Origin: Promethearchaeota archaeon
GTDB taxonomy: Archaea > Asgardarchaeota > Lokiarchaeia > Sigyniarchaeales > SOKP01
Length of the DNA: 22,917 nt
Reading direction: 5' to 3'
Assembly (NCBI GenBank): GCA_019058015.1
Contig: JAHLWH010000178.1
Span: forward strand, 1 to 22,917
How positions within the stretch are numbered: the stretch's first letter is position 1; every line of letters starts with the position of its first letter. Below the pieces are notes generated by a model. It did not search any database, had not been told where the DNA came from, and saw nothing but the letters and a program-made list of their open reading frames with translations. A program made the position numbers and the translations under genes. Positions 1,857 to 22,289 of the stretch are shown piece by piece.

Positions 1857-3629
1857 ATGATAAAAATGAATATGGATAGAGATAAATTATTGTTAATTGG
1901 GAAAATTTTCCTTATTATTTTTGCTCTTGGGCTCTGGACTTATTCATATATTGACTTCAATGTAATGTTCAATAATGATAAGGTCACATTATGGATTCAT
2001 GGTCCTTCAATAGTAGAAGAGGATGAAGAATTTAGTCTAACAGTAGAAGCATGGGATATTTTTGAAAGATTAGCAGGGAGATTTACGGGTGAGATCTCCT
2101 TTAGTATAGAATCGTATAATTTCACCACACTTGAAGGGATCAGTTCTGATCATACATTACCAGCTGACTATGTATTCAGTTCTAATTTTATATGGAGTGG
2201 TATTTTGCCTGCCTATATAATACCCGGCGCTGATAATGGAAAAAAAACATTTAACATGAAAATTTCTACTCCCGGAATTCATTACGTTGTAGTAGAGGAG
2301 AAAAATAATCATAATCGATATAGGAGTAATCCAATAATAGTCAAATCAGAAGGAGATTCGTATTTGAAATTATATTGGGGCGATCTTCACGGTCATACGC
2401 TTTTTTCAGATGGATCTGGTTTACCCTTTGAATCATATCAAATTGCTCGTGATGTTTCATTATTAGATTTTGCAGCCTTAACAGATCATTGTGAACACTT
2501 CCCAAGAATGGGCGATATTGATATTTTCAATATTTTCGATAATTACATTCAAACAACTAATAGCTTTAATGAACCAGAAAAATTTGTGACAATTGTTGCT
2601 TTAGAATGGACACCCCGTTATGTAGTCAGGGGAGCAGATATTGTTTTTGGCCATTTAAACGTATATTTTGAAGGAGATAACATGCCATTCTTTTCTACTT
2701 TTACGAATCTTACACCTGATGTGTTATTTGAATACCTTGAAGAAAATAGTAATGATGATTTTATCTCATGGACTCATCATACAATAAGAAAGGATTACGC
2801 ATCGGATTATGCATTTTATCACGAGGATATAAATACTTTAATTGAAATTTACTCGGTTCATGGTTCATGTGAGACCTTAGGAAATGATACTTATTATGAA
2901 GAAGTTTCAAAAATTCCAACCGATGAACCAGGTTATTCGGTGAGAGATGCTTTAAAGATGGGCAGGCGTTTTGGGTTTATGGCTTCAGGAGATACTCATG
3001 ATGGTCGACTAGGGCACAGTATAAGTCATACAAAAGCCTCTGCTTATAATCAATATCCTTACACATTAGCAGGATATAGACTAGGTCATCCCCACCCAAA
3101 CGGTTTAACAGGTATTTTTGCATCCAATTTAACAAGAAAATCGATCTTTAACGCATTAAAAACAAAATCTTGCCTTGCAACTACAGGTGTGAATAGACCA
3201 TATATTGAATTTAATATAAATGAAACTACAGTAGGAGATAATAATTCAACTTTAAATGTCCCAGCTAATGATACTCATCGGAGGATTAATATTTTAATTT
3301 GTGCTGATGGAGTATCTTTTGGCCCTAATAATATCAATAACATCTCAGAGGTTGAGATTTATAAAAATTCAGAATTATGGTATTCTAATAAATCAATTAA
3401 TGATATATTTTTTAAAATGTCAATTTTAGACAATAAAACAATCACTGGTACCAGCTATGATAACTGCATCCAAAAAGACGATGGTGAGTGGTATATACAC
3501 CAAAATTCATTAAAACCTGTCAACCCTGATGAATTAAATACCGGTGGCTTTGATTACTATTATATTAGAACTCGTGATACCAGTGGTTATGCTGCCTGGG
3601 TTGGACCAATATGGGTTGGAGTCCCGTAA
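1857..3629 (+). CDS. Membrane-anchored PHP-fold metallohydrolase (DUF3604 / CehA-McbA-like)
   Basis: N-terminal TM helix. Metal motifs WGDLHGHT.FSDG, DFAALTDH, LEWT, GHLNV, ASGDTHDG. C-terminal YYYIR...AWVGPIWV. Confidence 0.82.
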   Translation: MIKMNMDRDKLLLIGKIFLIIFALGLWTYSYIDFNVMFNNDKVTLWIHGPSIVEEDEEFSLTVEAWDIFERLAGRFTGEISFSIESYNFTTLEGISSDHTLPADYVFSSNFIWSGILPAYIIPGADNGKKTFNMKISTPGIHYVVVEEKNNHNRYRSNPIIVKSEGDSYLKLYWGDLHGHTLFSDGSGLPFESYQIARDVSLLDFAALTDHCEHFPRMGDIDIFNIFDNYIQTTNSFNEPEKFVTIVALEWTPRYVVRGADIVFGHLNVYFEGDNMPFFSTFTNLTPDVLFEYLEENSNDDFISWTHHTIRKDYASDYAFYHEDINTLIEIYSVHGSCETLGNDTYYEEVSKIPTDEPGYSVRDALKMGRRFGFMASGDTHDGRLGHSISHTKASAYNQYPYTLAGYRLGHPHPNGLTGIFASNLTRKSIFNALKTKSCLATTGVNRPYIEFNINETTVGDNNSTLNVPANDTHRRINILICADGVSFGPNNINNISEVEIYKNSELWYSNKSINDIFFKMSILDNKTITGTSYDNCIQKDDGEWYIHQNSLKPVNPDELNTGGFDYYYIRTRDTSGYAAWVGPIWVGVP

Positions 3630-3646
3630 ATCGTAAAATGTATTAT

Positions 3647-3674
3647 TTTTTTCCTATCTTTTTTTAGCTTTTTT
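3647..3674 (+). terminator. Archaeal-type oligo-T terminator
   Basis: Three T6-T7 runs directly after the stop codon at 3629. Confidence 0.45.
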
Positions 3675-3743
3675 ATAGAAAGAAATTAAAATTGATAATG
3701 ACAATAATTAAATCAATATAAACAAAATCTAATAAAAGAAAAA

Positions 3744-4682
3744 ATGTCTCATCAAATATCTAATGAAGTTTATTTAAAATATCTTTTATTATCCTTAAAT
3801 AAAGATGAATTAAAAGAAATATGTAGATCTTTTAATATAAAAGGTTTTTCAAAGTTTGGTAAGGAAGATTTAACTAATTTTTTAATTGATAGTTTAGCTG
3901 AAGAAGAAGTAGCGGAATTACTAAAAGAAAGAGAGATGGATATTATTTCTAGGGAAATAAATAGAGCATTTAATATCATTAGAGGTAATGAACGTGAATC
4001 TGTGGAGAATATTAAGATAGTAAACCCTAAGGAACATGAAATTGAGATTAAATTTAAGGGCTTTAGGTGGACGAATGAATTGTACCTTAGTATTAAAGAC
4101 ACAAATATTTTCGATCCAGAGAGAATTTGTGAATGTAGAATTGGCTCCGCTGGAGGTTTTTGTCCCCATTTTTGGGTTGGATTTATTGTTTCCTTAAAAA
4201 AAGGGTTTTTTAATTTGAAAAATTGGACTACTACTAAATTACCTAAAGATTTCGGAAAGCGAATAAAAAATATTCAAATTTCTACTATATCAAAAGATAA
4301 ATCAATAGAACAATTAAGGATTTTTGATGCAACTTCTGATGATGTAAGACTTTTAAAATTTTTAAATTCAAGAACAACTGTTTATGATGGAACTGTCACA
4401 GATTTAGAATTTAAAGAGGACGATTTTCAAGGCAATATTACTAAATACTATATTGCAACATTAAAAGACGGTAAACTGGGCCCACAGTTAAAGAAAAAAT
4501 CAGATTTTAATGAAAATGAATTAGAAGAGTTTGAAGAGATTAAAGCAAGAATCAGCGAAAAAAAGCATATTGATGCAGATTTAAAGGTAGGAGATATAAT
4601 ATCTTTAAATGGATCCCTTACTAAAGACAATTTTTTGGATGCTCTTGTATTAAAAAGAGTAACAAAAATTCAAAAAAAGTAA
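3744..4682 (+). CDS. SWIM zinc-finger protein with N-terminal HEH (SAP/Rho-N-like) and C-terminal OB-fold-like domains
   Basis: SWIM CxC-x8-CxH (CECRIGSAGGFCPH, 4128-4169). N-terminal LNKDELKEICRSFNIKGFSKFGKEDL. C-terminal GTVTD...YYIATLKDG...LKVGDIISLNG. Confidence 0.75.
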   Translation: MSHQISNEVYLKYLLLSLNKDELKEICRSFNIKGFSKFGKEDLTNFLIDSLAEEEVAELLKEREMDIISREINRAFNIIRGNERESVENIKIVNPKEHEIEIKFKGFRWTNELYLSIKDTNIFDPERICECRIGSAGGFCPHFWVGFIVSLKKGFFNLKNWTTTKLPKDFGKRIKNIQISTISKDKSIEQLRIFDATSDDVRLLKFLNSRTTVYDGTVTDLEFKEDDFQGNITKYYIATLKDGKLGPQLKKKSDFNENELEEFEEIKARISEKKHIDADLKVGDIISLNGSLTKDNFLDALVLKRVTKIQKK

Positions 4683-4757
4683 ATTAAAAATTATAAAGCA
4701 TTCTCTCCTAATCTAATTAATAATTTTAAATAATCTAACATCAATTAATGAATTATT

Positions 4758-4765
4758 AAGGAGGA
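4758..4765 (+). promoter_or_regulatory. Shine-Dalgarno site
   Basis: AAGGAGGA 6 nt upstream of the ATG at 4772. Confidence 0.7.
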
Positions 4766-4771
4766 TTAATA

Positions 4772-5803
4772 ATGTTTTTAAAAGATAGATGTACCGTTTG
4801 CGGAGTATGTTTGATAAGATGCCCCTATTTGGCATATTCTGAGGAAAAAGCTAAGGAAGAGTTTAAAAAATTGATAAACAGTGAGCCTACTTCAATAACT
4901 GCGGAGTGTATTACATGTGCTGCGTGTAACATGTTCTGTCCTGAAGGAGCTAATCCTTTTGATTTAATTAACGATAGGCAAGAAGAAACTGGAACATTTA
5001 AAGTTACCGATGAATGGATCAGAATGATGAAAATGGCGTCAAAAATGCCATCCAAAATTATTAAAGGAGATCCTGAAAAACCAATTATGAATCTCTGTTC
5101 AGTAGGAGATATACTTCCTGGAGTTATTGAAGGGCAGCTCTTCGATGGAATGACACTTCTTAAAGGAGGTGATTATTTTTGTTATTTTGGTTGGGTGCAT
5201 GCAGGAAAACCAAGTATGGTTAGCGAAAATGCCCAAATTTTTGTAGATAATCTCGCAAAAATTGGTGCTGAGGAAATAATATGTTATCACGACGATTGCT
5301 ATGCGATGTTAACCAATAAGGTTATAGAATTTGGGATAGACTTGCCGTTTAAACCGATTCATATATTAGAATATCTGCGAGATTATGTTAAGGAGCATAA
5401 TGACCAGATAAAAAAATTAAACATGAAAGTTGCCTACCAGCAACCCTGCGCTTCAAGGTATGCCTTTGAAGAAAATGACAAAATACTTGATGAACTATTT
5501 GAACTTATAGGGGTTGAAAGAGTAGATAGAAAATACGATCGAATTGATGCCCAGTGCTGTGGAGGAATAATAAGTGTGATGTTAAATTTAGGTAAAAAAG
5601 AATCAAATAAATGGCGGATGACTAATATTATGGATGCAAAGGAAGCGGGAGCTGACGCAATGGTTTTCTTATGTCCATTATGCATTCTTAGCCTTAGAAG
5701 TCGAGCAAAAGCCCAAGGATTGGAACCATACATCATTAGCAACTTAGTGAGATTAGCATTAGGGGAAAAACTCACACATGGAGGAGCTGGAAAGATCTAT
5801 TAA
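4772..5803 (+). CDS. Fe-S oxidoreductase, HdrD/GlpC-like (2x[4Fe-4S] ferredoxin domain + CCG domains)
   Basis: CTVCGVCLIRCP and CITCAACNMFCP. Degenerate first CCG domain (FCYFG...HDDC). Second domain YQQPC...QCCGG...LCPLC. Confidence 0.88.
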   Translation: MFLKDRCTVCGVCLIRCPYLAYSEEKAKEEFKKLINSEPTSITAECITCAACNMFCPEGANPFDLINDRQEETGTFKVTDEWIRMMKMASKMPSKIIKGDPEKPIMNLCSVGDILPGVIEGQLFDGMTLLKGGDYFCYFGWVHAGKPSMVSENAQIFVDNLAKIGAEEIICYHDDCYAMLTNKVIEFGIDLPFKPIHILEYLRDYVKEHNDQIKKLNMKVAYQQPCASRYAFEENDKILDELFELIGVERVDRKYDRIDAQCCGGIISVMLNLGKKESNKWRMTNIMDAKEAGADAMVFLCPLCILSLRSRAKAQGLEPYIISNLVRLALGEKLTHGGAGKIY

Positions 5804-8257: not shown

Positions 8258-8356
8258 AAAAAATTTGATATTTTAATTTAGAATATTAATTCGGTTTAAA
8301 TAATTATATATTTCTAAAAAAATCAATTAATTATCTCCAAGTTTTGAATCTAACTT

Positions 8357-10720
8357 TTAATAAGCGCAATGTTCTGTTCTTTCAATGATTTCATTTTGTA
8401 AATCAACACCAAGATTAACATAATAATCACTATAACCGGCAACTCGCACTATCAAATTTCTATATTTTTCTGGATTTTTTTGAGCTTCGCGTAAAGTCTC
8501 TGCTGAGACTACATTAAATTGAACGTGATGCCCATCCATTTTAAAATAGGCCCTGATTAAATGCGCCAGTTTTTCAATACCGATATCGTCAGCTAATAAT
8601 TTAGGTGTAAATTTTTGATTTAGTAATGTGCCCCCAGTTCGAAGATGATCAATCTTTGCTGCGGATTTTATAACGGCTGTAGGACCATGGGTATCTGCCC
8701 CTTGAACAGGTGAGATTCCTTCGGATAATGGAGTATATGCCTTTCGACCATCAGGAGTTGCCCCGATTACGCTACCAAAGTAAATATGTACCGTTGTTGG
8801 AAGAAGATTCACGCGATGATGACCACCTTTAGTGTTAGGTCGTCCATCAATTGCTTTATAATATAATTCAAAAATTTGTTGCATAATCTCATCTGCATAA
8901 TCATCATCGTTTCCATATTTCGGTGTATCAGTTATAAATAGTTGTCGTAAGGTTTCCGAATTCTTGAAATTATCTTTTAAAATCCCTAACATTTGCTGCA
9001 TATTTATCCGTTTCTTATCAAATACATTATATTTAATTGAAACTAAAGAATCAGTTATACTACCCAAACCAACGCCTTGAATATAGGATGTATTATATCT
9101 GGCTCCACCATTATTATAATCTTTTCCTTTTAAGATACAATCATCTATTAATAAGGATATAAAAGGTGCTGGCAGTGTTTGAGCCCATAGCTGCTCGATA
9201 ATATTATTTCCTTTAATTTTAATATCAATAAAATAATTTACTTGTTTTGAAAATGCTTCAAAGACTTCCTTAAAAATTTGAAATTTTGTTGGATCACCAG
9301 TTTTCAACCCGATCTCTTTACCAGTTATTGGATCAATACCATTATTCAATGTAATCTCTAATATTTTTACGAGATTGAAATAACCCGTAAGAATATAAGC
9401 CTCCTTTCCAAAAGCACCTGCTTCAACACAACCGCTGGCACCACCAGTTCGAGCATCAATAATTGATTTCCCTTGTCTAGTTAATTCTTGAATAATAGCA
9501 TCAATATTAAATATAGATGGTTGTCCGAATCCTGTTTTGACGATTTGAAGAGCCCGCTTTAAAAATTCATTCGGTGTTTTTTTGCTGATTTGCACATTGG
9601 AACTTGGTTGAACAATTCTCATCTCCTCTATAACATCAAGAATCATATATGAGAGTTCATTAACAGCATTTGTTCCATCTTCTTTTAAGCCACCCAAGTT
9701 TATATTGCAAAAATCTGTATAAGTATTACTTTCCTCAGCTGTAACCCCCACTTTTGGAGGAGCAGGTTGGTTATTAAATTTGACCCAGAAAGCTTCTAAT
9801 AATTCTTTTGCATCTTCATATGTGATTGTTCCATTCTCTCGATCTTTCTCATAGAAGGGATATAAATGTTGATCAAGATGGCCTGGATTAAAAGAATCCC
9901 ATGTGTTATATTCTGTGATCACCCCAAGATGAATAAACCAATAATGTTGCAGTGCCTCCCATATAGTTCTAGGTGTATGTGCCGGAACATACTCGCAAAT
10001 CTCTGCTATTTTTTCTAATTCATGCTTTCTCTTGACATTTTCTTCATCTCTTGCTAAATCTTTTGCTTTTTCAGAATGGAGTTTAGCAAAGATTATTAAC
10101 GCATCTGCACAAATATCCATTGCTTTTAATTCTTCTCTTTTATTGAAAGCATCGGAATCATTATAAAAATCTAAATTTTCAATACTTTCTTTAATTTCCT
10201 TTTTTAAATCCAGAAATCCTTTCGTAAAGATTTTTTTATCGCCCACTGTGTGACCAGGTGCTCTTTGTTCCATAAATTCAGTAAAAACTCCTGCTTCATA
10301 TGCTTCTATCCATTCTGAATCTACATTTTCAAAAATTTTATCTCTAATTGAACGCCCTTTCCAAAACGGGATAATAATATCCTTAGTTAATTGTTTTGTC
10401 TCATCACTTACTATAAAAGAAATCTTTTCTCGAGAGTTGAGAATATCAAGGTCTTTAAGACTATGACAACATACTTCCGGATATGTTGGTGTAGCTTTTG
10501 GTTCGGGACCTCTTTCTCCTACAATAAGCTCACCATCGTTAATACAGATTTTTTTATGTTCCAAAATATATTTGAAAGCAAGAGCTCTTGCAACTGGAGC
10601 AGAAAGTTTATGTGCTGCACCACTTTTATAAAAATCTGTAATTAGTAACGCTCTCTCGAGGGAAAAACTTGGTATTGCCTTACGACTCTGCTCACGTAGT
10701 TTTATTATTCTTTCATTCAT
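8357..10720 (-). CDS. hypD: Glycyl radical enzyme, trans-4-hydroxy-L-proline dehydratase
   Basis: RVAGY glycyl loop and SGCVE Cys loop. HypD-type motifs FMEQRAPGHT, NTWDSF, ESNTYTDF, LTGYF and LPTTVH. PTYPEVCCH and KFNNQPAPPKVG also match my recollection of C. difficile HypD. Confidence 0.92.
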   Translation of the reverse strand: MNERIIKLREQSRKAIPSFSLERALLITDFYKSGAAHKLSAPVARALAFKYILEHKKICINDGELIVGERGPEPKATPTYPEVCCHSLKDLDILNSREKISFIVSDETKQLTKDIIIPFWKGRSIRDKIFENVDSEWIEAYEAGVFTEFMEQRAPGHTVGDKKIFTKGFLDLKKEIKESIENLDFYNDSDAFNKREELKAMDICADALIIFAKLHSEKAKDLARDEENVKRKHELEKIAEICEYVPAHTPRTIWEALQHYWFIHLGVITEYNTWDSFNPGHLDQHLYPFYEKDRENGTITYEDAKELLEAFWVKFNNQPAPPKVGVTAEESNTYTDFCNINLGGLKEDGTNAVNELSYMILDVIEEMRIVQPSSNVQISKKTPNEFLKRALQIVKTGFGQPSIFNIDAIIQELTRQGKSIIDARTGGASGCVEAGAFGKEAYILTGYFNLVKILEITLNNGIDPITGKEIGLKTGDPTKFQIFKEVFEAFSKQVNYFIDIKIKGNNIIEQLWAQTLPAPFISLLIDDCILKGKDYNNGGARYNTSYIQGVGLGSITDSLVSIKYNVFDKKRINMQQMLGILKDNFKNSETLRQLFITDTPKYGNDDDYADEIMQQIFELYYKAIDGRPNTKGGHHRVNLLPTTVHIYFGSVIGATPDGRKAYTPLSEGISPVQGADTHGPTAVIKSAAKIDHLRTGGTLLNQKFTPKLLADDIGIEKLAHLIRAYFKMDGHHVQFNVVSAETLREAQKNPEKYRNLIVRVAGYSDYYVNLGVDLQNEIIERTEHCAY

Positions 10721-10723
10721 AAT

Positions 10724-11533
10724 TTATCCACCTATTTTCACTTGAAAACCAAAATTTTCAAAATCATTTTTTATTTCCTCCATTTTTTCATTCGTTGGAG
10801 ATTGTATGTCTCTCATTTTGTATTCCATCTTCAATTTATCGTACTTATTTTTCCCGATTCGATGATAAGGTAAAAGATTTACTCTTTTAACGTTATTTAA
10901 AGAGGAGATAAATTCTCCAAGTTGTGTAATATTTATTGCTGTATCAGTAATTTCTGGAATTATAGGAATCCTAATCAATGTTTGCTTACCATTTTGTGAT
11001 AAATACTTTAAATTTTTAATAATCTGTTTGTTGGACACTCCTGTATATTTAATATGGTTTTGATCTTCCATGATTTTCAAATCATATAGATATAAGTCAA
11101 CAAAATTATTAATTTTCTTTAGATCTTCTAAAGATGAATATCCAGAAGTATCCAAGGCGGTATGGATGTGCTGCTTTTTGCATTCATGTAATAATGAATA
11201 CAAAAATTCAAGTTGCATTAAAGGTTCTCCCCCAGAAAATGTGACTCCTCCATTTGATTCCTCATAAAAAATAATATCTTTTTTAATTTCTTCCATTATC
11301 TCATTTACAGACATTTCCCGTCCGATTATCTCTTGAGTTTCCCAGGATGCAAGTTTTTCTTTTTCATTCTTGTTTTCAATAGTTATTTTTTGAAGTTCTA
11401 ATCTAAGACCTTCAGGGTTATGACACCACCAGCAACGTAATGGACACCCTTTTAGAAAAATTGTAGTTCGAATACCGGGACCATCATGAATTGCGAATTT
11501 TTTGATGTTAAATATTATTCCGGTCTCTTTCAT
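10724..11533 (-). CDS. Glycyl-radical enzyme activating enzyme (radical SAM), cognate for HypD
   Basis: HDGPGIRTTIFLKGCPLRCWWCHNPE, GGVTFSGGEP, ALDTSG, YDLK, LLPYH. Ends 3 nt before hypD, with GGTGGA in its last codons as a possible RBS. Confidence 0.93.
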   Translation of the reverse strand: MKETGIIFNIKKFAIHDGPGIRTTIFLKGCPLRCWWCHNPEGLRLELQKITIENKNEKEKLASWETQEIIGREMSVNEIMEEIKKDIIFYEESNGGVTFSGGEPLMQLEFLYSLLHECKKQHIHTALDTSGYSSLEDLKKINNFVDLYLYDLKIMEDQNHIKYTGVSNKQIIKNLKYLSQNGKQTLIRIPIIPEITDTAINITQLGEFISSLNNVKRVNLLPYHRIGKNKYDKLKMEYKMRDIQSPTNEKMEEIKNDFENFGFQVKIGG

Positions 11534-11737
11534 AATATATTATCTTAATTTTCAGCTTTTTTTTTCTCAGTAAATCTAAGAAATTATTAATCAATTCAAT
11601 TTAAATTTATTTCCTATATTAAAATTTTATAAACAATTTTGAAAACAATTAAAGAAATTCGCAATTTTAAATGATTATACTTAAAACTTTTTCATTCTAA
11701 TAATTTATATACTTTTAAATACGAAATAATATATTCT

Positions 11738-11743
11738 GAGGAG
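11738..11743 (+). promoter_or_regulatory. Shine-Dalgarno site
   Basis: GAGGAG 8 nt upstream of the ATG at 11752. Confidence 0.6.
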
Positions 11744-11751
11744 CAATTACA

Positions 11752-13116
11752 ATGATGGAAAAAGAAAGTGAAACACCCCAATTAAAGCGAAGGGTCTCTT
11801 TATTCGCTGTTACTATGTATGGGGTTGGTAATATTTTAGGAGCTGGTATTTATGCCCTAATAGGTGAAGTAGTAGGTGAAACTGGAAATTTATCTTGGCT
11901 TTCTTTCGTTTTAGCTGCAATTACTGGAGCTTTAACTGGCTTATCTTATGCCGAACTTTCAGCCATGTATCCAAAAAGTGCTGCTGAATTTGTGTATGCG
12001 GAGAAAACATTCAACATACGCGTTTTATCGTTCACTTTAGGATGGATTATAATTTTTTCAGGCCTTTTCTCTAGTGCGACGGTTGCACTAGGCTTTGCGA
12101 ATTATTTAGCTGCGCTGCTCAGCATAGATTCTACATTTCTAATCGTTCTATTTGCAATAATTTTAGTTGGAATTCTTGGTATGATAAACTTTGCGGGTAT
12201 AAAAAGCTCAACATGGACAAATATTTTATTTACTTTAATAGAAGCCGCCGGTCTTATATTTATTATTATAATAGGAATACCTTATTTTGGTTCAGTTAAT
12301 TATATTGAGCTTCCAGTTGGGGCAACTTTTACAGCTGTATTTTCTTCAATCGCACTAATTTTCTTCGCGTATATCGGCTTTGAGGATATTGCCAATATAG
12401 CAGAAGAAGTAAAGAAACCAGAGAAAAACTTACCTAAGGCAATAATCTATTCTTTAATTATTACAACAATTTTATATTTTTTAACCGCAATAGCTGTTGT
12501 AAGTATCTTGCCTTATTCAGAAATTGCTGCATCACCTGATCCATTAAGTGCTGTTACAACAGCTGCCTTAGGTCCCGTTGGGGGGCTAATAATGTCATTG
12601 ATTGCACTTTTTGCAACCGCTAATACGGTTTTAATAATGTTAATAGTTACCTCTCGTATGATGTATGGAATGGCTAGAGATAAAGCCCTACCAGAATCTC
12701 TATGTAAGGTATCGGAAAAACATAGAACACCAATTATCTCTGTGTTTTTAACAATGATTCTAACGATGGTCTTTACATTATTTACTGATATTTCTATCGT
12801 TGCAAATGCAACTGTATTTGGAGTATTAATCAATTTTCTCATCGTGAATATATGCGTTATTGTGCTAAGAAAGAAGAATCCTGATGATAAGAGACCGTTT
12901 AAACTTCGGCCAAATATTGGCTGGGTACCAGTTGTGGCATTATTTGGTGCTATCGTTTGTATTGGGCTATTATTTACCTTTGATTGGTTAATAGTCCTAA
13001 TCCAAGGCATTATAATTTTAATAGGACTACTAATTTTCTATATACCTAAGATTTTATTTTTTTTGAAACGTTCAATTAGAAATAGATTACAAAGAAATAA
13101 ATTAAAAAAAAATTAA
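11752..13116 (+). CDS. APC-superfamily amino acid permease
   Basis: TM1 GNILGAGIY, SYAELSAMYP, TM6 FFAYIGFEDI..AEEVKKPEKNLP, SRMMYGMARD, about 12 TMs. Confidence 0.93.
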   Translation: MMEKESETPQLKRRVSLFAVTMYGVGNILGAGIYALIGEVVGETGNLSWLSFVLAAITGALTGLSYAELSAMYPKSAAEFVYAEKTFNIRVLSFTLGWIIIFSGLFSSATVALGFANYLAALLSIDSTFLIVLFAIILVGILGMINFAGIKSSTWTNILFTLIEAAGLIFIIIIGIPYFGSVNYIELPVGATFTAVFSSIALIFFAYIGFEDIANIAEEVKKPEKNLPKAIIYSLIITTILYFLTAIAVVSILPYSEIAASPDPLSAVTTAALGPVGGLIMSLIALFATANTVLIMLIVTSRMMYGMARDKALPESLCKVSEKHRTPIISVFLTMILTMVFTLFTDISIVANATVFGVLINFLIVNICVIVLRKKNPDDKRPFKLRPNIGWVPVVALFGAIVCIGLLFTFDWLIVLIQGIIILIGLLIFYIPKILFFLKRSIRNRLQRNKLKKN

Positions 13117-13505: not shown

Positions 13506-16445
13506 TTGGCTCAACCCAAAAAGAAAAGTAAAAAGGAAACGAAGAAAGTGAGTGAACAAGTATCTCTTTCTTCATTTATTGAAAAAAAAAAACCTAAAAA
13601 AGAAATTATTGAAGAAGAACAACCGCAAATGGTTACTAAAGAGCAAATCGAAAGGGAAATTCTAGGAATAAAGGAACAACCAAAAACTGTTGCAAAAAAA
13701 GAGATTAATGTTATAGAATCTGGGGAAAAAGTGTCAAAAAAAGAGACATTAGGAGAGATTCCTAAAAATCAATATTATGAACCTAAAGCCACAAATTTTG
13801 GATTACTTGAAAAAAATACTCAATTCAAAAAGAAGGAAAGAGAATCTGGAGAAGCTGCTTATGTTAGGTTTTTGATTGAAAATGGGAAGATCACCACGAA
13901 TTTAGAAAATGGGGTTTTACTAGATGTTGATTACGATGGAGGGCAAAATAAGGCATACTGTAAATTTTATGATTTAGAGTCAAAGGAGATTAAAATTTGG
14001 ATTGATACAACTGGTCATACACCTTACTGTTTAAGTAAAAGAAGCATAACTGATCTTGATAATGATATTGATCTAACAAATTTCGATGGATTTATCAGAA
14101 ATGAGACAATTAAGCGATATGATTTATTATTTGATAAGGAAATTGAAATGACAAAAGTCTACGGAAAAACACCCACAAGTATCGGTGCTCGAGGAAAAGC
14201 TATAAGGGATATTCTAAAAAAAGAAAATGCTTGGGAAGCTGATATTAGATATCATCAAAATTATATTTATGATGAGGGATTAATACCAGGATTGATTTAT
14301 GAAATAAAAAATAATAAATTAATTAAAAAGGATTTTAGCGGAAGTACAAAGGAGACAATTGAAAGAGCGAGGGAACTTTCAGATATCTTTAAAGATGAGA
14401 GTAAAGCACTAAAAGATTTTGCTAATAGGTATCTTGAGATTTTTAATACGCCCATTATTGATTTAAAAAGGGTTGCGATTGATATCGAAATACATATGAA
14501 TCCTGATGAGAAGAGAATACCAGACGCAAGTAAATCTAAAAATAAAATAATTAGTATATCATTTGTTGGGATAGATGGATTAAAAAAGGTCTATGTATTA
14601 GAAAGAGAAGGTTTCTCAATGGGAGAAAAAATAGAGGAAATGCCAGATGATTTAGAAATTGTCTTTTTTGGGGATGAAAAGGATTTATTGATTGAAACCT
14701 TTCGAATCATGTGGAAATATCCCGTAGTTATAACATTTAATGGTGATAATTTTGATCTTAATTATTTATTCCATAGAGCAAAAAAGCTCAAAATTCCTGA
14801 ACTATTAAATCCTATTCTTGTTAGAGCCGGATTTGGACCTATGCGGAAGGCTGAATGTAATTTAAAGAAAGGATTACACATCGATCTTTATAGCTTTTTT
14901 TCAAATAGGAGTATTAAAGGTTATGCTTTTGGAGGGGCATATGAAAGGAACTCTTTAGATTTGATAACTACTGCTTTATTAGGTAAAGGAAAATTTAAAC
15001 ATGATGAAGAAATCCATGAGATGACATATAATCGACTTATTTATTATAATTATAAAGATTCTGAAATTACATTGGAACTAACAAGGTTCAATGAAGCAGT
15101 AGTGATGAACCTTATTACAATTCTTTTGAGAATGACAAAAATGCCTCTTCATGATTTAATTCGACACCAAATTTCTGCGTGGATAAAAAATATCTTTTAT
15201 TTTGAACATAGGCAGAAAAATTATCTAATCCCAAGAAGATCTGAAATAAGTGAATTAAAAAAGGGAGGGACATCGCAATCAATAATCGAAGGGAAAGGAT
15301 TTCAAGGTGCTCTAGTTATAGATCCTGTCCCCGGCACACATTATAATGTGGTTGTATTAGATTTTGCAAGCCTTTATCCTTCAATTATAAAAGAATATAA
15401 CCTATCATACGAGACAGTCCAGTGTCCCCATGAAACTTGTAAAGAAAATTTAATAAAAGGAATACCTTATCACGTTTGCAACAAAAGAACTGGCATATTT
15501 TCCTATGTAACAGGATTTTTTAGAGATGTTAGAGTTAAATATTTTAAACCAAAATCATCAGATAAATCAATACCCCAAAAACAGAGAAATATATTCCAAG
15601 TTTTACAACAAGCTCTAAAAGTGTTTATTAATGGTTCATACGGTGTATTTGGAAGTCCAAATTTCCCCTTATTTTGTCTGCCAGTTGCTGAAAGCACAAC
15701 AGGTATTGGTCGATATTCAATTCAATCTGCGATAAAGAAAGCGGAAAGCCTCGAAATTCAGGTTCTTTACGGCGATACTGACTCAATTTTCTTAAAAAGC
15801 CCAACAAAGAGCCAATTAAATGAAATTTCTAATTGGAGTAAAGATGAATTGGATTTAGATTTAGAAGAAGAAAAAACTTATCAATTTTTAGCACTATCAA
15901 AACGAAAAAAGAATTATATCGGAGTTTATGCAGGTACAAAAACTATTGATATTAAAGGGATGACTGCTAAAAAGAGCAATACTCCTAATTTTATCAAGAA
16001 AACATTTGGTCAATTAACTGAAATATTAAGAGATATTACAAATAATGAAGAATTTGATAAATCACGCCAAATAATTATTGATATTATCAAAAAAGATCGA
16101 GGTGCGATAGGAAAAAAGGGTGGATTTACATTAGATGATTATATAATCTCTTTAGAACTGCAAAGACCCTTGAATAAATATATTAAAACTACTCCTCAAC
16201 ACGTAAGAGCTGCACGAATCCTAAAAAAAGTTACTAAAAAGGAACTACAAGAGGGCGATGTAGTTTCTTTCGTTAAAACAAGAGATAGTGGGGGAGTCAA
16301 ACCAGTAGAATTAGCTAAACTCGAAGATATTGATGGAAAAGCGTATAGACATTTATTAAGAAGTGCAGTTGAACAACTCCTTGATGCTTTGGGCATATTT
16401 TATGAAGAAATTAGAGGAATAAAGAAAATGGATTCATTTTTTTAA
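13506..16445 (+). CDS. polB: Family B DNA polymerase, PolB1-like, exonuclease and polymerase motifs intact
   Basis: ExoI DIE, ExoII FNGDNFD, ExoIII YNYKD. Polymerase motifs DFASLYPSII, QQALKVFINGSYGVFG, YGDTDS, KKNYIG and KGMTAKKSNTP are B1-type signatures. TTG start. Confidence 0.95.
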   Translation: MAQPKKKSKKETKKVSEQVSLSSFIEKKKPKKEIIEEEQPQMVTKEQIEREILGIKEQPKTVAKKEINVIESGEKVSKKETLGEIPKNQYYEPKATNFGLLEKNTQFKKKERESGEAAYVRFLIENGKITTNLENGVLLDVDYDGGQNKAYCKFYDLESKEIKIWIDTTGHTPYCLSKRSITDLDNDIDLTNFDGFIRNETIKRYDLLFDKEIEMTKVYGKTPTSIGARGKAIRDILKKENAWEADIRYHQNYIYDEGLIPGLIYEIKNNKLIKKDFSGSTKETIERARELSDIFKDESKALKDFANRYLEIFNTPIIDLKRVAIDIEIHMNPDEKRIPDASKSKNKIISISFVGIDGLKKVYVLEREGFSMGEKIEEMPDDLEIVFFGDEKDLLIETFRIMWKYPVVITFNGDNFDLNYLFHRAKKLKIPELLNPILVRAGFGPMRKAECNLKKGLHIDLYSFFSNRSIKGYAFGGAYERNSLDLITTALLGKGKFKHDEEIHEMTYNRLIYYNYKDSEITLELTRFNEAVVMNLITILLRMTKMPLHDLIRHQISAWIKNIFYFEHRQKNYLIPRRSEISELKKGGTSQSIIEGKGFQGALVIDPVPGTHYNVVVLDFASLYPSIIKEYNLSYETVQCPHETCKENLIKGIPYHVCNKRTGIFSYVTGFFRDVRVKYFKPKSSDKSIPQKQRNIFQVLQQALKVFINGSYGVFGSPNFPLFCLPVAESTTGIGRYSIQSAIKKAESLEIQVLYGDTDSIFLKSPTKSQLNEISNWSKDELDLDLEEEKTYQFLALSKRKKNYIGVYAGTKTIDIKGMTAKKSNTPNFIKKTFGQLTEILRDITNNEEFDKSRQIIIDIIKKDRGAIGKKGGFTLDDYIISLELQRPLNKYIKTTPQHVRAARILKKVTKKELQEGDVVSFVKTRDSGGVKPVELAKLEDIDGKAYRHLLRSAVEQLLDALGIFYEEIRGIKKMDSFF

Positions 16446-17948: not shown

Positions 17949-19550
17949 ATGGGCGGCCAAAGAAAAAATTTGAATAAAATAAATCGCGTAATTTTATGCA
18001 TAATTGATTGTCTTCGAGCAGAACATTTATTTAAATTTATCAATAGCGGCCTACTTCCGAATTTAAAAAGATTAAAGGATGAAGGGATTTTTTCTAAAAA
18101 TTGTATTACTGATTTTCCATCTGTAACGTTGCCTACTCAACCAACGATAATAACAGGCACATATACTGGAGATTATCGGAAAGAATATTGCCATGGAATC
18201 CCTTGTTTTAGATGGATGGATCGCGATTTTACACCTCCAATCCTTAGAGATTATGGTTCCAAGAGCATACAAGTTTTTAAAATGAATGAAGATTTGGGCA
18301 AAAATTGTAAAACTCTTCTCGAAATGGTTGGAGATGGAAATAAAACAAGTATCACTCAGTTTTGTAATCGAGGAACAACTTATTTTTTCCCCAAATCCAA
18401 AATTAGAATAGGATTTTATTTTTTATTAATAAGCTATTACCCAAATTTGAAAAAAGCAATTTCTATATTCAATTCAAGAGTGATTCATTTACTCTTAGAA
18501 AATTTTAGAAGCCCAAAAAAATATTTTCGAAACAAAGAACCTCCGATTGGGAGTTTAATCTATTTTTTAAGTTCTGATCTTTTAATGCATGTTTTTGGAT
18601 ATGATAGCCAATTGTATAAGTTAAATTTAATGCATATTGATAAAATGATGGGTGTTCTATTAGATGGATTAGAGGAATTGGGTTATTTAGATGAAACTGC
18701 AATAGCAATCACATCTGATCATGGAAATTATCGAGCAAATAAAGTTGGGGAGTTGAGTTCTATTTATTTACAAAATGGTTTGAAGCCATATAAACCACGT
18801 GCAAGTTATAAAGGGAATTTCAATTTGGCTGAATTTGGTGGCGTTGGCTTTTTTTACTTCAGAGGACGCAATAATTTACTTCAAGAGAATAAATATCAAT
18901 GGACACTGCCTACTTTGAAGGAGCTTGGAAATTTTGGACCAAAACGGGTTAATCTATTAGATAAATTATTTAATATTGAAAACAGTCAATTGATGTATTA
19001 TAAAGATGATAACAATACTCATCATAAAGGGATTGTATATTTAAAACGAAAAGATAAGAAAACTGGAAAAATACACACTGGTAAAATAGAATATAAAGGG
19101 ATAAATATAGATTATAAGACTAAATACACTTCTGAAGATGATGATAATGATATTTTTGGTTATTTAAAGGATGAAACTGCCAGTAAATTACTAGATGGTA
19201 AATTTCATTCAAATCGCGAATGGATGGACGCCACATATCATCTTGATTTTCCAATGTATCCTGATTTAATTCCACGTCATTTTAAAAACCCTCGAAGTGG
19301 TGATATTATCCTGAGCACCGATGGGAGTGTTATTTTTAATATTGCCCATGGTAAGCGAAAAAGTGACAATATTCATTTCCATGATTTGGGTCTTAGAGAC
19401 TGTGCAATTGTGCCTTTATTAATTGGAGGTTCTTCAGAAATTCCTCATAAAGAAATTCCTTATTGTTCAACAACAGATATTGTTCCAACATTATTACAAA
19501 TGCTAGGTAGAAAAGCACATCCAAGTATGGTTGGAAGTTCTTTGATTTAA
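17949..19550 (+). CDS. Alkaline phosphatase superfamily enzyme (nucleotide pyrophosphatase/phosphodiesterase-like)
   Basis: IIDCLR, FPSVT (Thr nucleophile), SDLLMH, TSDHG, HFHD, DIVPTLL. No signal peptide seen. Confidence 0.88.
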   Translation: MGGQRKNLNKINRVILCIIDCLRAEHLFKFINSGLLPNLKRLKDEGIFSKNCITDFPSVTLPTQPTIITGTYTGDYRKEYCHGIPCFRWMDRDFTPPILRDYGSKSIQVFKMNEDLGKNCKTLLEMVGDGNKTSITQFCNRGTTYFFPKSKIRIGFYFLLISYYPNLKKAISIFNSRVIHLLLENFRSPKKYFRNKEPPIGSLIYFLSSDLLMHVFGYDSQLYKLNLMHIDKMMGVLLDGLEELGYLDETAIAITSDHGNYRANKVGELSSIYLQNGLKPYKPRASYKGNFNLAEFGGVGFFYFRGRNNLLQENKYQWTLPTLKELGNFGPKRVNLLDKLFNIENSQLMYYKDDNNTHHKGIVYLKRKDKKTGKIHTGKIEYKGINIDYKTKYTSEDDDNDIFGYLKDETASKLLDGKFHSNREWMDATYHLDFPMYPDLIPRHFKNPRSGDIILSTDGSVIFNIAHGKRKSDNIHFHDLGLRDCAIVPLLIGGSSEIPHKEIPYCSTTDIVPTLLQMLGRKAHPSMVGSSLI

Positions 19551-19571: not shown

Positions 19572-22289
19572 TCATATTTTTATAATGAAGCTCAATATCT
19601 CTTGTGGATTTGATACAAAAGTAAAGGAATTATCATTCTCAATCTTCATCTCCTCAATTGGGAATTCTAATAAATTTACTTTTATAACACTCTTAATTTT
19701 TTGATTGAATTTTACTGTCCCTGTTGATTTCTTTCCAGATGTTTCTAATAATCTAATTAAAAAGCCATTATTTCCATCTTCAGGTTTTTTAATTGATGAT
19801 ACTATAAAATTTTCGGGTTCAATTGAAAAAAGACTAAATTCACTTCCTAATTTGCCCTTATTATGCTTGATCTTCCGAACAATCAAGGGTATGTTAAAAT
19901 TTTGAGCTTTTCTAGCTATTAGGTTATTAGAAAAATCACCATTGTGTAAATATAAAGAGTATTTAAATGTATGATCTCCAATTGCATATGCTTTAGGAAT
20001 CCTATAAAAAGGTCCAGCCATGGCGGGAACAGTTCCATATATTATATTTGTAAGTAATCCAGTACTTCGCATGAGAGTCAGGAAGCATGAGTCTTTATTT
20101 TTGCCAATTTCATATTCTGGTATTCCATAATTCATAATTGAAACTCCTTTTTTCTCCCTAATATTCGAAAAGTCCATCCAATTAATAACAGGTTTTATTC
20201 TATTATAATGCTCAAAATGTTTATTTATTTCCTTCCATGATTTTCCCACTTTTGGTTCAATATTTCGCTCAATAAATCCATATGGAATTTCTGATCTTAT
20301 AGTAGGGTTTGATATAGGAATTGGAAAACATGCTTGAATACGAATGTTTCTTATGCTATTGTAAAATATAGATATAAAATCAATTCTTACATCACCAAAA
20401 TTAGGAATTATGATATATTGAGTGATTTCGTTAATTGATTTAAATAAAATCTTACTTTTGCATTTTAATTTCGCATTTAATTTAACGACGGTTCTAACTG
20501 GTCCTTTTTCGACAACTTCTAGTTGAAAATCATACATATGATGGATTTTTCCAATTCTTCCAATGTAATAACCATCTCCTCGATCATTGTGAATTCTTAA
20601 GCCTCCAATTGAATATTCACCATTTGAATTAAGCTCAAATTTATCTTTTTTATTAAAAATACTAATTAATTTTCCATCTTTAAAACTCAATTTTAGAATA
20701 TTATTTTCAATAGTTAGAGTATTGAATTTTTTTTGTTCCAATTTAGATTGTTCTTGATTTGAAGATTGGTTTTTCCTAATGGAATATGAGGCATAACCGA
20801 TTGGAGGAATATCTTTGGCCAAGAAAATGTAAGAATTTTCTTTCTCGTTGATTTTTTCTTTTTGATAAGGGATTTGTTTACCATTTTGATTTAATATACT
20901 AAATTCTTTTATTTTACTGGGTAATTTTATCTTTTCAATGCTTGTGCGTTCCCAAGAGAGTGGATTGAAAATTAAAAGCGGTATATCTTCTTTTAAAATA
21001 TTAGATGTATCTATATTTTTAATGAAATAACTTAATGCACTTTTAAATAGTCTTTTTAATTGTAATTCCGACAGTTTTAATTGCTTCATTATATTATCAT
21101 ATGCTGCATCTATATGAACTCCGGTTATTCCATCATGGAAATCACAACAAAGAATTCGCTTTATTGCCTTAGTAATTATCTCTTTAGGATAAGGAGTGTT
21201 ATTTAATAGATTGGATAATGTCGAAAATAGTTCTGTTAAATAAAATTGATTCTCTAAAAATCGTATTTGTTGCTTTAATTTAGGTCGATTACTAAACGTT
21301 CCTGGGAATAAATCTGGAGGTCCTAAAAATTCATAGTTTTCTACAATGCCAAATTTCTTCCTTGATTTTTTTAGAGCAGAGTGAAATTCTGAGGGAATTG
21401 CGATAATTGCTTTATTTTCCTTATTTTTTTTGTTATAATAATCGACTGCATCAAGGATATTAGTACTTGGAGGAAGATTATCTGTTCCATTTAAAATTAG
21501 AATGTTATCAGTAGTTGACCTAACAATTCTATTTTTAATTGAAAACTTTAGACCCCCCATATCCAATCCGAATATCGAAATTCCTAACCTGGTATTTGAT
21601 AATCTACGAAAAATGTATTTAAATGGAGGAAAAATTTTTATTAGAAATTCATACACTCTGAAATTTTGTGGAATTATTTGTAAAGTTCCAGGAATTAGAA
21701 AGAATGGAAAAATAGGAGGTAAAATCGTCATTGCAAAAGGAGGTGGAATATAGGTGTAAGTTGAATACATCCAATGAGTAAGAATTTTTGACCCATCGAA
21801 ACTTTTCCACCAAAATTCTTGTGGGAGTCTTCTATTTCTTGCTCCTCTAACAAAAATAAAAAATTCAAAACCAGCTTTTTTTAATATCTGCGGAAGTTGG
21901 GGTGTTTGACCAAATGAATCAATAAGATATGCAATCGTTGAATCGATTCCAAAATGTTTTTTAAAATACCTACAACCATATAAAAATTGCCTTACAAGGC
22001 TTTCCCCGTTAGGTAAGAGAGTATCCGGAGCTACAATATCTCCACCAATCAACTCAACTTTTCTTTCTTTCACCCTCTGTTGGAGTTCTTCCCACATTTC
22101 AGGATGATTTATGCGAAAATATTCACATGCCATCACTGAATCAATAATATATCGATAATTTTCGTGCTTTCGCATAATCAGTAAAGCTTCTTTTATTAAT
22201 TTAGCATTTTTACTGCCCATTCCATCTGGTGTATCACACCATAAATAATCATAGTGAGAATGTGGAGTTAAAAATATTTTTTTTCCCAT
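19572..22289 (-). CDS. Glycoside hydrolase family 38 (alpha-mannosidase-like)
   Basis: HSHYDYLW zinc motif, GESLVRQ, IDSFG nucleophile, PQLPQIL, FHDGITG, FNPLSWER, GPVR, EIPYG, LTLMRS. Confidence 0.92.
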   Translation of the reverse strand: MGKKIFLTPHSHYDYLWCDTPDGMGSKNAKLIKEALLIMRKHENYRYIIDSVMACEYFRINHPEMWEELQQRVKERKVELIGGDIVAPDTLLPNGESLVRQFLYGCRYFKKHFGIDSTIAYLIDSFGQTPQLPQILKKAGFEFFIFVRGARNRRLPQEFWWKSFDGSKILTHWMYSTYTYIPPPFAMTILPPIFPFFLIPGTLQIIPQNFRVYEFLIKIFPPFKYIFRRLSNTRLGISIFGLDMGGLKFSIKNRIVRSTTDNILILNGTDNLPPSTNILDAVDYYNKKNKENKAIIAIPSEFHSALKKSRKKFGIVENYEFLGPPDLFPGTFSNRPKLKQQIRFLENQFYLTELFSTLSNLLNNTPYPKEIITKAIKRILCCDFHDGITGVHIDAAYDNIMKQLKLSELQLKRLFKSALSYFIKNIDTSNILKEDIPLLIFNPLSWERTSIEKIKLPSKIKEFSILNQNGKQIPYQKEKINEKENSYIFLAKDIPPIGYASYSIRKNQSSNQEQSKLEQKKFNTLTIENNILKLSFKDGKLISIFNKKDKFELNSNGEYSIGGLRIHNDRGDGYYIGRIGKIHHMYDFQLEVVEKGPVRTVVKLNAKLKCKSKILFKSINEITQYIIIPNFGDVRIDFISIFYNSIRNIRIQACFPIPISNPTIRSEIPYGFIERNIEPKVGKSWKEINKHFEHYNRIKPVINWMDFSNIREKKGVSIMNYGIPEYEIGKNKDSCFLTLMRSTGLLTNIIYGTVPAMAGPFYRIPKAYAIGDHTFKYSLYLHNGDFSNNLIARKAQNFNIPLIVRKIKHNKGKLGSEFSLFSIEPENFIVSSIKKPEDGNNGFLIRLLETSGKKSTGTVKFNQKIKSVIKVNLLEFPIEEMKIENDNSFTFVSNPQEILSFIIKI

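Follow-up and report, generated by a model that had tools for sequence, protein, structure and literature searches.

The closest described relative of the system treated here is HypD of Clostridioides difficile, a glycyl radical enzyme (GRE) that reportedly works with its own activase (HypD-AE) and a 1-pyrroline-5-carboxylate (P5C) reductase, as Levin and colleagues are said to have described in 2017. Aspects of this system are treated in Huang et al. 2018 and Backman et al. 2020 (PMC7077986). Sister GREs, namely HpyG, HpzG and HplG, act on N-methyl-cis-4-hydroxyproline isomers and trans-4-hydroxy-D-proline. According to a 2026 review, every PFL-like GRE with a characterised function comes from bacteria, and "the vast majority" of GRE activases carry an eight-cysteine ferredoxin-like domain, only the pyruvate formate-lyase activase (PFL-AE) and the class III ribonucleotide reductase (RNR) activase being without it. 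Among Asgard archaea, HypD was annotated and expressed in an isolate (Imachi et al.). Here we analysed the whole of contig JAHLWH010000178.1 (22,917 bases, referred to as the window; C179 among our contigs), which belongs to a Promethearchaeota genome of 3.84 Mb that is 94.4% complete and comprises 283 contigs. The window contains hypD and an activase gene. We propose, with a probability of about 0.72, that these form a two-gene unit through which hydroxyproline would be converted via P5C to proline or ornithine, serving both to provide proline and as an NAD(P)H sink, and that the adjoining amino acid permease is a mere neighbour.

The hypD gene lies at positions 8357-10720 on the minus strand and encodes a protein of 787 aa. 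The activase gene (10724-11533, minus strand; 269 aa) is upstream of hypD in the same orientation, 3 nt separating its stop codon from the hypD start, and encodes a radical S-adenosylmethionine (SAM) protein of a short form. An APC-superfamily amino acid permease of 454 aa is encoded divergently at 11752-13116 on the plus strand. The Pfam scan assigned PFL-like (763.6 bits) and Gly_radical (130.6 bits) domains to the 787-aa protein, and Radical_SAM (77.6 bits) and Fer4_12 (60.3 bits) domains to the 269-aa protein. An earlier interpretation made from the letters of the window alone, hereafter the sequence-only reading, had described these three open reading frames (ORFs) at exactly these coordinates, with the permease 218 nt from the activase, and had taken them as an archaeal hydroxyproline-utilisation module without proC; no proC was indeed found among the window proteins by the Pfam and NCBIfam scans. 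Its assumption of an Asgard host also held, as the nearest named homologues of both HypD and the permease were almost all from Asgard metagenome-assembled genomes (MAGs), carrying the names Promethearchaeota, Hermod-, Hod-, Thor-, Heimdall- and Odinarchaeota. The closest HypD homologues showed 72-78% identity, apart from one cluster at 99%, and the closest permease homologues 66-83%, apart from one cluster at 96%. The order activase-hypD-permease recurred at 92-99% identity in three further genomes from this genus, one of which has it on a contig of at least 134 kb within a 10-contig assembly. Therefore, the locus is the archaeon's own and not a contaminant. A search of sequencing runs listed no RNA run containing the sequence; four runs of unstated kind, all from one study, contained it, and nine RNA runs had next to none of its words.

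The identity of the 787-aa enzyme was assessed with family models, solved structures, active-site residues and a tree. The protein scored 1347.5 bits against the NCBIfam HypD equivalog NF043068 (cut-off, 1100), the next-best model giving 667, and the HypD model gave 1347.2 bits for it in the scan of the whole genome. The best solved structure was C. difficile HypD (6vxc/6vxe) with 1098.6 bits, covering residues 3-784 of the query with one single-residue gap. Lower matches were glycerol dehydratase (566.7 bits), HpyG (8id1; 492.9), 8iof (464.2), choline trimethylamine-lyases (approximately 403-453) and HplG (7vua; 414.1). In the parts of Backman et al. 2020 that deal with the active site, H160, D278, D339 and E436 form an acid/base network, S334, Y450 and T645 bind the carboxylate, F152, W277 and F340 make aromatic contacts, and D278, D339 and H160 are essential by mutagenesis. 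The sequence-only reading had listed twelve active-site residues in C. difficile numbering (F152, H160, W277, D278, S334, D339, F340, C434, E436, Y450, T645 and G765), and all of them were recovered in the window protein, each three positions lower. Thus, the acid/base residues were present as D275, D336 and H157, the C434-x-E436 loop as C431 and E433 in the context GCVEAG, and the glycyl radical site as G762 in VRVAGYS with the RVxG motif. All six carboxylate-binding and aromatic residues were present, and R156 and K326 were likewise retained. All 74 full-length HypD homologues, namely the window protein and those of 73 loci, had the full 12-residue pattern. It occurred in none of four GRE paralogues from the same genome, which scored 402-562 bits on the HypD model and agreed at these positions solely in the generic His, Cys, Glu/Asp and Gly. 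Such a match is far beyond chance.

These data bear on whether the enzyme acts on something other than trans-4-hydroxy-L-proline, for instance another isomer or an N-methylated form, as HpyG, HpzG and HplG do. The existence of these sister enzymes would allow for this, as would the fact that every PFL-like GRE assayed is bacterial, with no archaeal member among them. Against it stand the wide distance between the score for HypD and those for HpyG, 8iof and HplG, the identity of every substrate-contacting residue with that of HypD, and the passing of the HypD equivalog cut-off. We regard a different substrate as very improbable indeed.

A maximum-likelihood tree (IQ-TREE quick search, LG+G4) was built from 78 rows, with the four paralogues serving as the outgroup to the 74 HypD homologues; truncated loci (<700 aa) were left out, and, as the rows included no characterised reference sequence, the ranking of PDB structures stood in for placement against characterised GREs. 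The HypD group was split from the four paralogues with an SH-aLRT value of 100. The window protein fell in a set of 10-11 rows (SH-aLRT, 98), the rest of which came from Promethearchaeota and Hermodarchaeota MAGs and one MAG named "uncultured bacterium". The groups adjoining this Asgard set were from uncultured bacteria, Calditrichota, Rhodothermota, Ignavibacteriota and Bacteroidota. Taken together, the equivalog model, the structure ranking, the residues and the tree supported the earlier claim that the GRE is a HypD orthologue accompanied by its activase, and sequence data could not make the HypD assignment stronger.

To describe the distribution of HypD, 301 Asgard genomes were used as the sample of the phylum. 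A HypD match at E<=1e-150 was identified in 160 of them; 11 of these matches lay at 1e-151 to 1e-167, which is the range of paralogues, and the one listed row of this kind was 40% identical. Hence about 149 of the 301 genomes, or about half, carry a HypD-grade gene. In one genome (G054:C230:3222-5575), the match was divided into two overlapping pieces (residues 1-436 and 432-785) with a TAA stop in the second, which could be due to a frameshift, to disruption of the gene or to faulty assembly. The neighbourhoods were examined in 80 related hypD loci with flanks of up to 10 kb (12 of them Asgard and 3 from other archaea). proC was found within 10 kb of hypD in none of the 80, and its absence from the locus is thus the rule outside Clostridiales. 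In several of the Asgard loci (L010, L012 and L014-L016), genes for Ras/Roc/Arf-family small GTPases, some of 520 aa, occurred a few kb from hypD, which is typical Asgard content. The novelty implied by the sequence-only reading was overstated, since NCBI already names HypD in Asgards and Imachi et al. 2020 list it for the isolate MK-D1 in their Supplementary Table 4; it is absent from their main text. Besides Imachi et al., our literature search found nothing further on hydroxyproline or hydroxyproline dehydratase in Asgard archaea or Lokiarchaea. On its own, the finding is sound as an annotation but is no discovery: HypD is common in Asgards and already named in databases and in an isolate's gene table. 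Likewise, the hydroxyproline biology is plausible but already recognised.

We searched the genome for the genes that could receive P5C. The sequence-only reading had offered three fates, an unlinked proC, oxidation to glutamate, or conversion to ornithine, and the first and third were matched by genes. proC was identified on another contig, C24 (282.7 bits; cut-off, 196.75), next to an aconitase-family gene. A gene for ornithine aminotransferase (OAT) was identified on C81 (C81:22831-24072, L089; 530 bits against a cut-off of 378.4), adjoining the carbamate kinase gene arcC (377 against 358). For oxidation to glutamate, no candidate reached the cut-off: proline dehydrogenase (Pro_dh) had no match in the genome, and the best match to P5C dehydrogenase (TIGR01237) was an aldehyde dehydrogenase-superfamily gene, C98:38028-39314, with 131 bits against 659.65. 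Proline racemase/hydroxyproline epimerase (Pro_racemase) and proA likewise had no match in the genome, and the best match to proB gave 37.6 bits against 186. PrdB (PF07355) was not matched in the genome either, but this family was matched in none of 14 control genomes and the result is uninformative. With no gene found for ProA, ProB, proline dehydrogenase, P5C dehydrogenase, the racemase or PrdB, proline or ornithine is most likely the end point of the pathway. At face value, in this 94%-complete genome, ProC would be fed P5C only from ornithine or hydroxyproline, and nothing would oxidise proline or P5C. We also noted that, with proA and proB not found and OAT paired with carbamate kinase, proline would come from ornithine/arginine or from hydroxyproline, and not from glutamate.

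It has been assumed otherwise for MK-D1: Imachi et al. 2024 state that genome analysis had postulated L-hydroxyproline as a potential energy source. Applied to the present genome, this would make hydroxyproline a true energy and carbon substrate, with an unrecognised dehydrogenase oxidising P5C to glutamate that is fermented further, and the single aldehyde dehydrogenase-superfamily gene on C98 would be the candidate for this step. The score of that gene is far below the P5C dehydrogenase cut-off, proline dehydrogenase was not found in the genome, and proC and OAT are both clearly present. Moreover, the isolate did not grow when 1 mM L-hydroxyproline was given as the sole substrate (Imachi et al. 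2024). We consider use as an energy substrate improbable.

In the two-gene reading that we prefer, the radical SAM activase would install the glycyl radical on G762 of HypD, and HypD, through C431, would abstract a hydrogen from C5 of trans-4-hydroxy-L-proline and eliminate water to yield P5C. This chemistry is assigned because of the orthology to the characterised C. difficile enzyme. Judging from the gene content, the unlinked ProC would then reduce P5C to proline or, alternatively, OAT would transaminate it. In an archaeon that ferments and lives in syntrophy, the role of the pathway would be to supply proline and to act as an NAD(P)H sink, and not to serve as energy-yielding catabolism. 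In the simplest reading, the conversion of hydroxyproline to proline would be a two-electron sink that cannot alone support growth, and this agrees with the failure of the isolate on 1 mM L-hydroxyproline. A broader proposal, which we put forward tentatively and hold to be possible at best, is that Asgards lacking ProA and ProB may use hydroxyproline as both electron acceptor and proline source via HypD and ProC, in a Stickland-type branch that ends at proline and is primed by a minimal activase. If this were true, hydroxyproline reduction would partly relieve obligate syntrophs from shedding reducing equivalents as H2 or formate, it would account for hydroxyproline alone not supporting growth of the isolate, and the minimal activase would show that the ferredoxin-like auxiliary-cluster domain is dispensable for a GRE eliminase.

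The form in which hydroxyproline arrives was considered from the neighbours of hypD in 63 non-archaeal loci, for which the 112 nearest of 201 listed neighbours were scanned. A Peptidase_M24 Xaa-Pro peptidase of approximately 460 aa, mostly with AMP_N, was located directly beside hypD in 12 of the 63 loci (L018, L022, L024, L025, L027, L032, L035, L038, L041, L057, L059 and L076). Other neighbours were DPP-IV/S9 proline-specific peptidases (3), GntR-FCD regulators (5) and an ornithine cyclodeaminase (1). These M24 and S9 peptidases suggest that hydroxyproline is taken up within peptides and released from them inside the cell. The archaeon's own genome gave no AMP_N-type aminopeptidase P match, and it contains five Creatinase_N-bearing open frames of 376-403 aa, which are candidate M24B Xaa-Pro peptidases and are all unlinked to hypD. 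Hydroxyproline therefore probably enters largely as peptides, which Xaa-Pro peptidases would cleave intracellularly.

The activase was of a reduced type. Its best model was NF043069 (HypD activase) with 339 bits in two stretches, which missed the equivalog cut-off of 425; it passed TIGR02494, the model for PFL2-type GRE activases (297.2 bits against 174.35), and scored 229.8 bits on the PFLA model. The radical SAM CX3CX2C motif was present (CPLRCWWC) and was followed by an insert of 57 aa with 0 Cys. The GRE-activase profile was matched at positions 1-42 and 94-293, and positions 43-93 were unmatched; the missing ferredoxin-like insert at these positions accounts for the score below the HypD-activase cut-off. 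The best solved relative was PflA (3C8F; 158.5 bits). Our literature search found no paper on HypD-AE and its auxiliary cluster. A survey was made of 65 activase ORFs from the window, the 80 hypD loci and loci of the same genome, of which 63 could be parsed. Short activases, with at most 1 Cys in an insert of 43-63 aa, made up 28 of the 63, and long activases, with 7-10 Cys in an insert of 87-97 aa, the other 35; one of the two unparsed ORFs (L013) was short on inspection. The short or long state changed only twice on the HypD tree over 57 rows, and all 28 short activases adjoined HypDs of one subclade, consisting of Asgard, Bacteroidota, Calditrichota and related sequences. This subclade offers a natural experiment on the ferredoxin-like domain.

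No activase was found near hypD within the fetched flanks in 9 of the 12 Asgard loci, and the same held for the sister genera g2 and g11. The loci with hypD alone in their fetched flanks were L009-L012, L014, L016, L017, L029 and L050. Eight lone-hypD genomes (G005, G014, G017, G023, G024, G029, G030 and G035) contained at most distant long activases (35-40% identical), encoded on contigs other than that of hypD, and in four of these genomes no activase matched at E<=1e-40.

The permease was next considered, with the 218-nt region that separates it from the activase (11534-11751). This region is AT-rich and presumably holds the promoters of both transcripts. The permease matched AA_permease_2 (188.7 bits) and AA_permease (152.2 bits) above the gathering score, and its closest structure was the bacterial amino acid transporter 5oqt, with 160 bits over residues 4-431, followed by CAT/SLC7 proteins. 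It passed no substrate-specific equivalog, giving 288 bits against 557 for TIGR00909 and 244 against 690 for BcaP. The sequence-only reading had made it the dedicated importer of free hydroxyproline within one co-regulated module with hypD and the activase. The divergent start only 218 nt from the activase and the same layout in all four genomes of the genus that hold the genes are what such a module would predict. These four genomes are, however, 96-99% identical at the genes and thus not independent, and they were the only ones, all within genus g1, with the permease and hypD on one contig. In the other genomes with both genes, these were on different contigs in 28 of 28 cases, and synteny across Asgard genomes was not seen. 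A BLAST search with the permease against all ORFs of the 80 hypD loci (E<1e-5) matched in none of them, and a Pfam scan of 120 archaeal and 112 non-archaeal hypD neighbours found no AA_permease.

The distribution of permease orthologues (E<=1e-100) argued in the same direction. Orthologues were identified in 44 of the 301 genomes, namely in families f1 (38 of 68), f8 (4 of 4) and f26 (1 of 3), and in none elsewhere. HypD was frequent in families without an orthologue, including f12 (61/76), f27 (15/21), f32 (9/11), f10 (11/28), f17 (7/19), f18 (3/3) and f2 (5/7), and it was not found in f8 or f26, nor in seven permease-bearing f1 genomes. In ten other genomes, the neighbours of the permease orthologues were an NrdG2-type radical SAM protein, a CCG iron-sulfur protein, enoyl-CoA hydratases, a thioesterase and OsmC, and no GRE was found beside them. 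A search of the literature on hydroxyproline, HypD and transporters returned no HypD-linked transporter by title among the matches listed. With linkage confined to one genus, no homologue in the flanks of the 80 loci and whole HypD-bearing families lacking the orthologue, the permease as part of a hydroxyproline module was not borne out, and we judge a dedicated importer to be unlikely. The permease probably serves Asgards as a general amino acid transporter and has come to adjoin hypD in this genus alone; it may carry free hydroxyproline.

Some details of the permease loci were recorded. In g2 and g11 (L100-L104 and L107-L109), the orthologues usually adjoin an NrdG2-type radical SAM gene and a CCG iron-sulfur protein gene, and in the f8 genomes of 1.3-1.4 Mb (L105 and L106) they lie directly beside an M1 (ERAP1-like) aminopeptidase gene. 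The radical SAM gene of approximately 250 aa beside the g2/g11 permease was considered as a diverged HypD activase and rejected, as its score exceeds the cut-off of the NrdG2 model (151-155 bits against 131) and its identity to the window activase is 27% over 130 residues. A 979-aa ORF near the L100 orthologue, which has the same length as the family-B DNA polymerase (PolB) of the window, was an LVIVD-repeat protein and not PolB.

Two further points speak for a module with the permease and, together with others, weigh against the two-gene reading. In f1, HypD and the permease orthologue occupy the same three genera (g1, g2 and g11), which is a weak hint of a functional tie. Transporters not homologous to the permease adjoin hypD in some other lineages, namely MFS (L020), Opp-type ABC (L031) and, in bacteria, OPT, EamA and MFS, and adjacency may therefore matter. 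The tree contained no characterised HypD or other GRE as a reference. The activase lies below its equivalog cut-off and is without the ferredoxin-like domain usual in GRE activases, for which reason the activation of HypD could differ or need a partner. As the genome is 94.4% complete and in 283 contigs, genes recorded as not found in it are not proven absent; the C98 aldehyde dehydrogenase (131 bits) could still oxidise P5C, and the PrdB search had no positive control. Weighing these points, we retain the two-gene unit of activase and hypD. Of the sequence-only reading as a whole, HypD, its activase, the Asgard host, the unlinked proC and OAT stood, whereas the permease module, the oxidation to glutamate and the implied novelty did not.

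Of the two transporter loci named above, L020:3105-7612 is from an Asgard MAG, and its MFS transporter gene overlaps the activase at the start of activase-hypD; in L031:4671-11178, from a Thermoplasmatota MAG, the genes of an Opp-type ABC peptide transporter are located 3' of hypD. Archaeal transcription terminates at oligo-T tracts. Such a tract, approximately 30 nt past the hypD stop codon in 8310-8356 (minus strand), is a possible terminator of the activase-hypD transcript. The remaining genes of the window showed no tie to hydroxyproline: a family-B DNA polymerase (13506-16445, plus strand; NF004417, 951 bits), a phosphodiesterase/sulfatase-like protein (17949-19550, plus strand), a GH38 alpha-mannosidase-like protein of 905 aa (19572-22289, minus strand) and, at 1857-5803 on the plus strand, a DUF3604/CehA-like metallohydrolase followed by a 312-aa ORF and a CCG/4Fe-4S protein. 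The four PFL2-type GRE paralogues of the genome (C80:9886-12282, C87:22379-24778, C264:1127-3709 and C21:15062-17566) reached no equivalog cut-off. Those on C264 and C21 have long N-terminal extensions, each with its own long-type activase that passes the model. The C80 enzyme adjoins an acyl-CoA dehydrogenase-like gene, and no activase was found alongside the C80 and C87 enzymes within the fetched loci.

Finally, we compared the locus with known systems. The permease shares AA_permease_2 and an alignment over residues 4-431 with the APC/SLC7 transporters (5OQT/6F34, "Amino acid transporter", which we take to be GkApcT), and differs in passing no substrate-specific family model. The activase resembles PflA (3C8F) and the class III RNR activase in consisting of the radical SAM domain only; unlike these, it is nearest in profile to the HypD activase (339 bits) and PFL2-type (297) models and not to PFLA (229.8), and it adjoins a GRE eliminase. 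HpyG, HpzG and HplG (8ID1, 8IOF and 7VUA) have the GRE eliminase/lyase fold and the CXE loop in common with the window enzyme, but the alignments reach only 414-493 bits, whereas the window protein has every residue of the HypD-specific set. HypD of Promethearchaeum syntrophicum MK-D1 (DSAG12_03102) is likened to the window enzyme by annotation, and adjacency to the permease is specific to the window's genus. Compared with the C. difficile system (6VXC/6VXE), the host is archaeal, proC is not adjacent although it commonly is in Clostridiales, the activase of 269 aa is without the ferredoxin-like insert (profile positions 43-93), and no proline reductase was found in a search that had no positive control, suggesting that Stickland completion is lacking; from the gene content, proline or ornithine is predicted as the final product of hydroxyproline. 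The two HypDs agree in the full-length 1098.6-bit alignment, in 12 of 12 active-site residues and in the adjacent activase. No PFL-like GRE from an archaeon has been characterised, and the window HypD is as safe a candidate for the first as sequence can offer.

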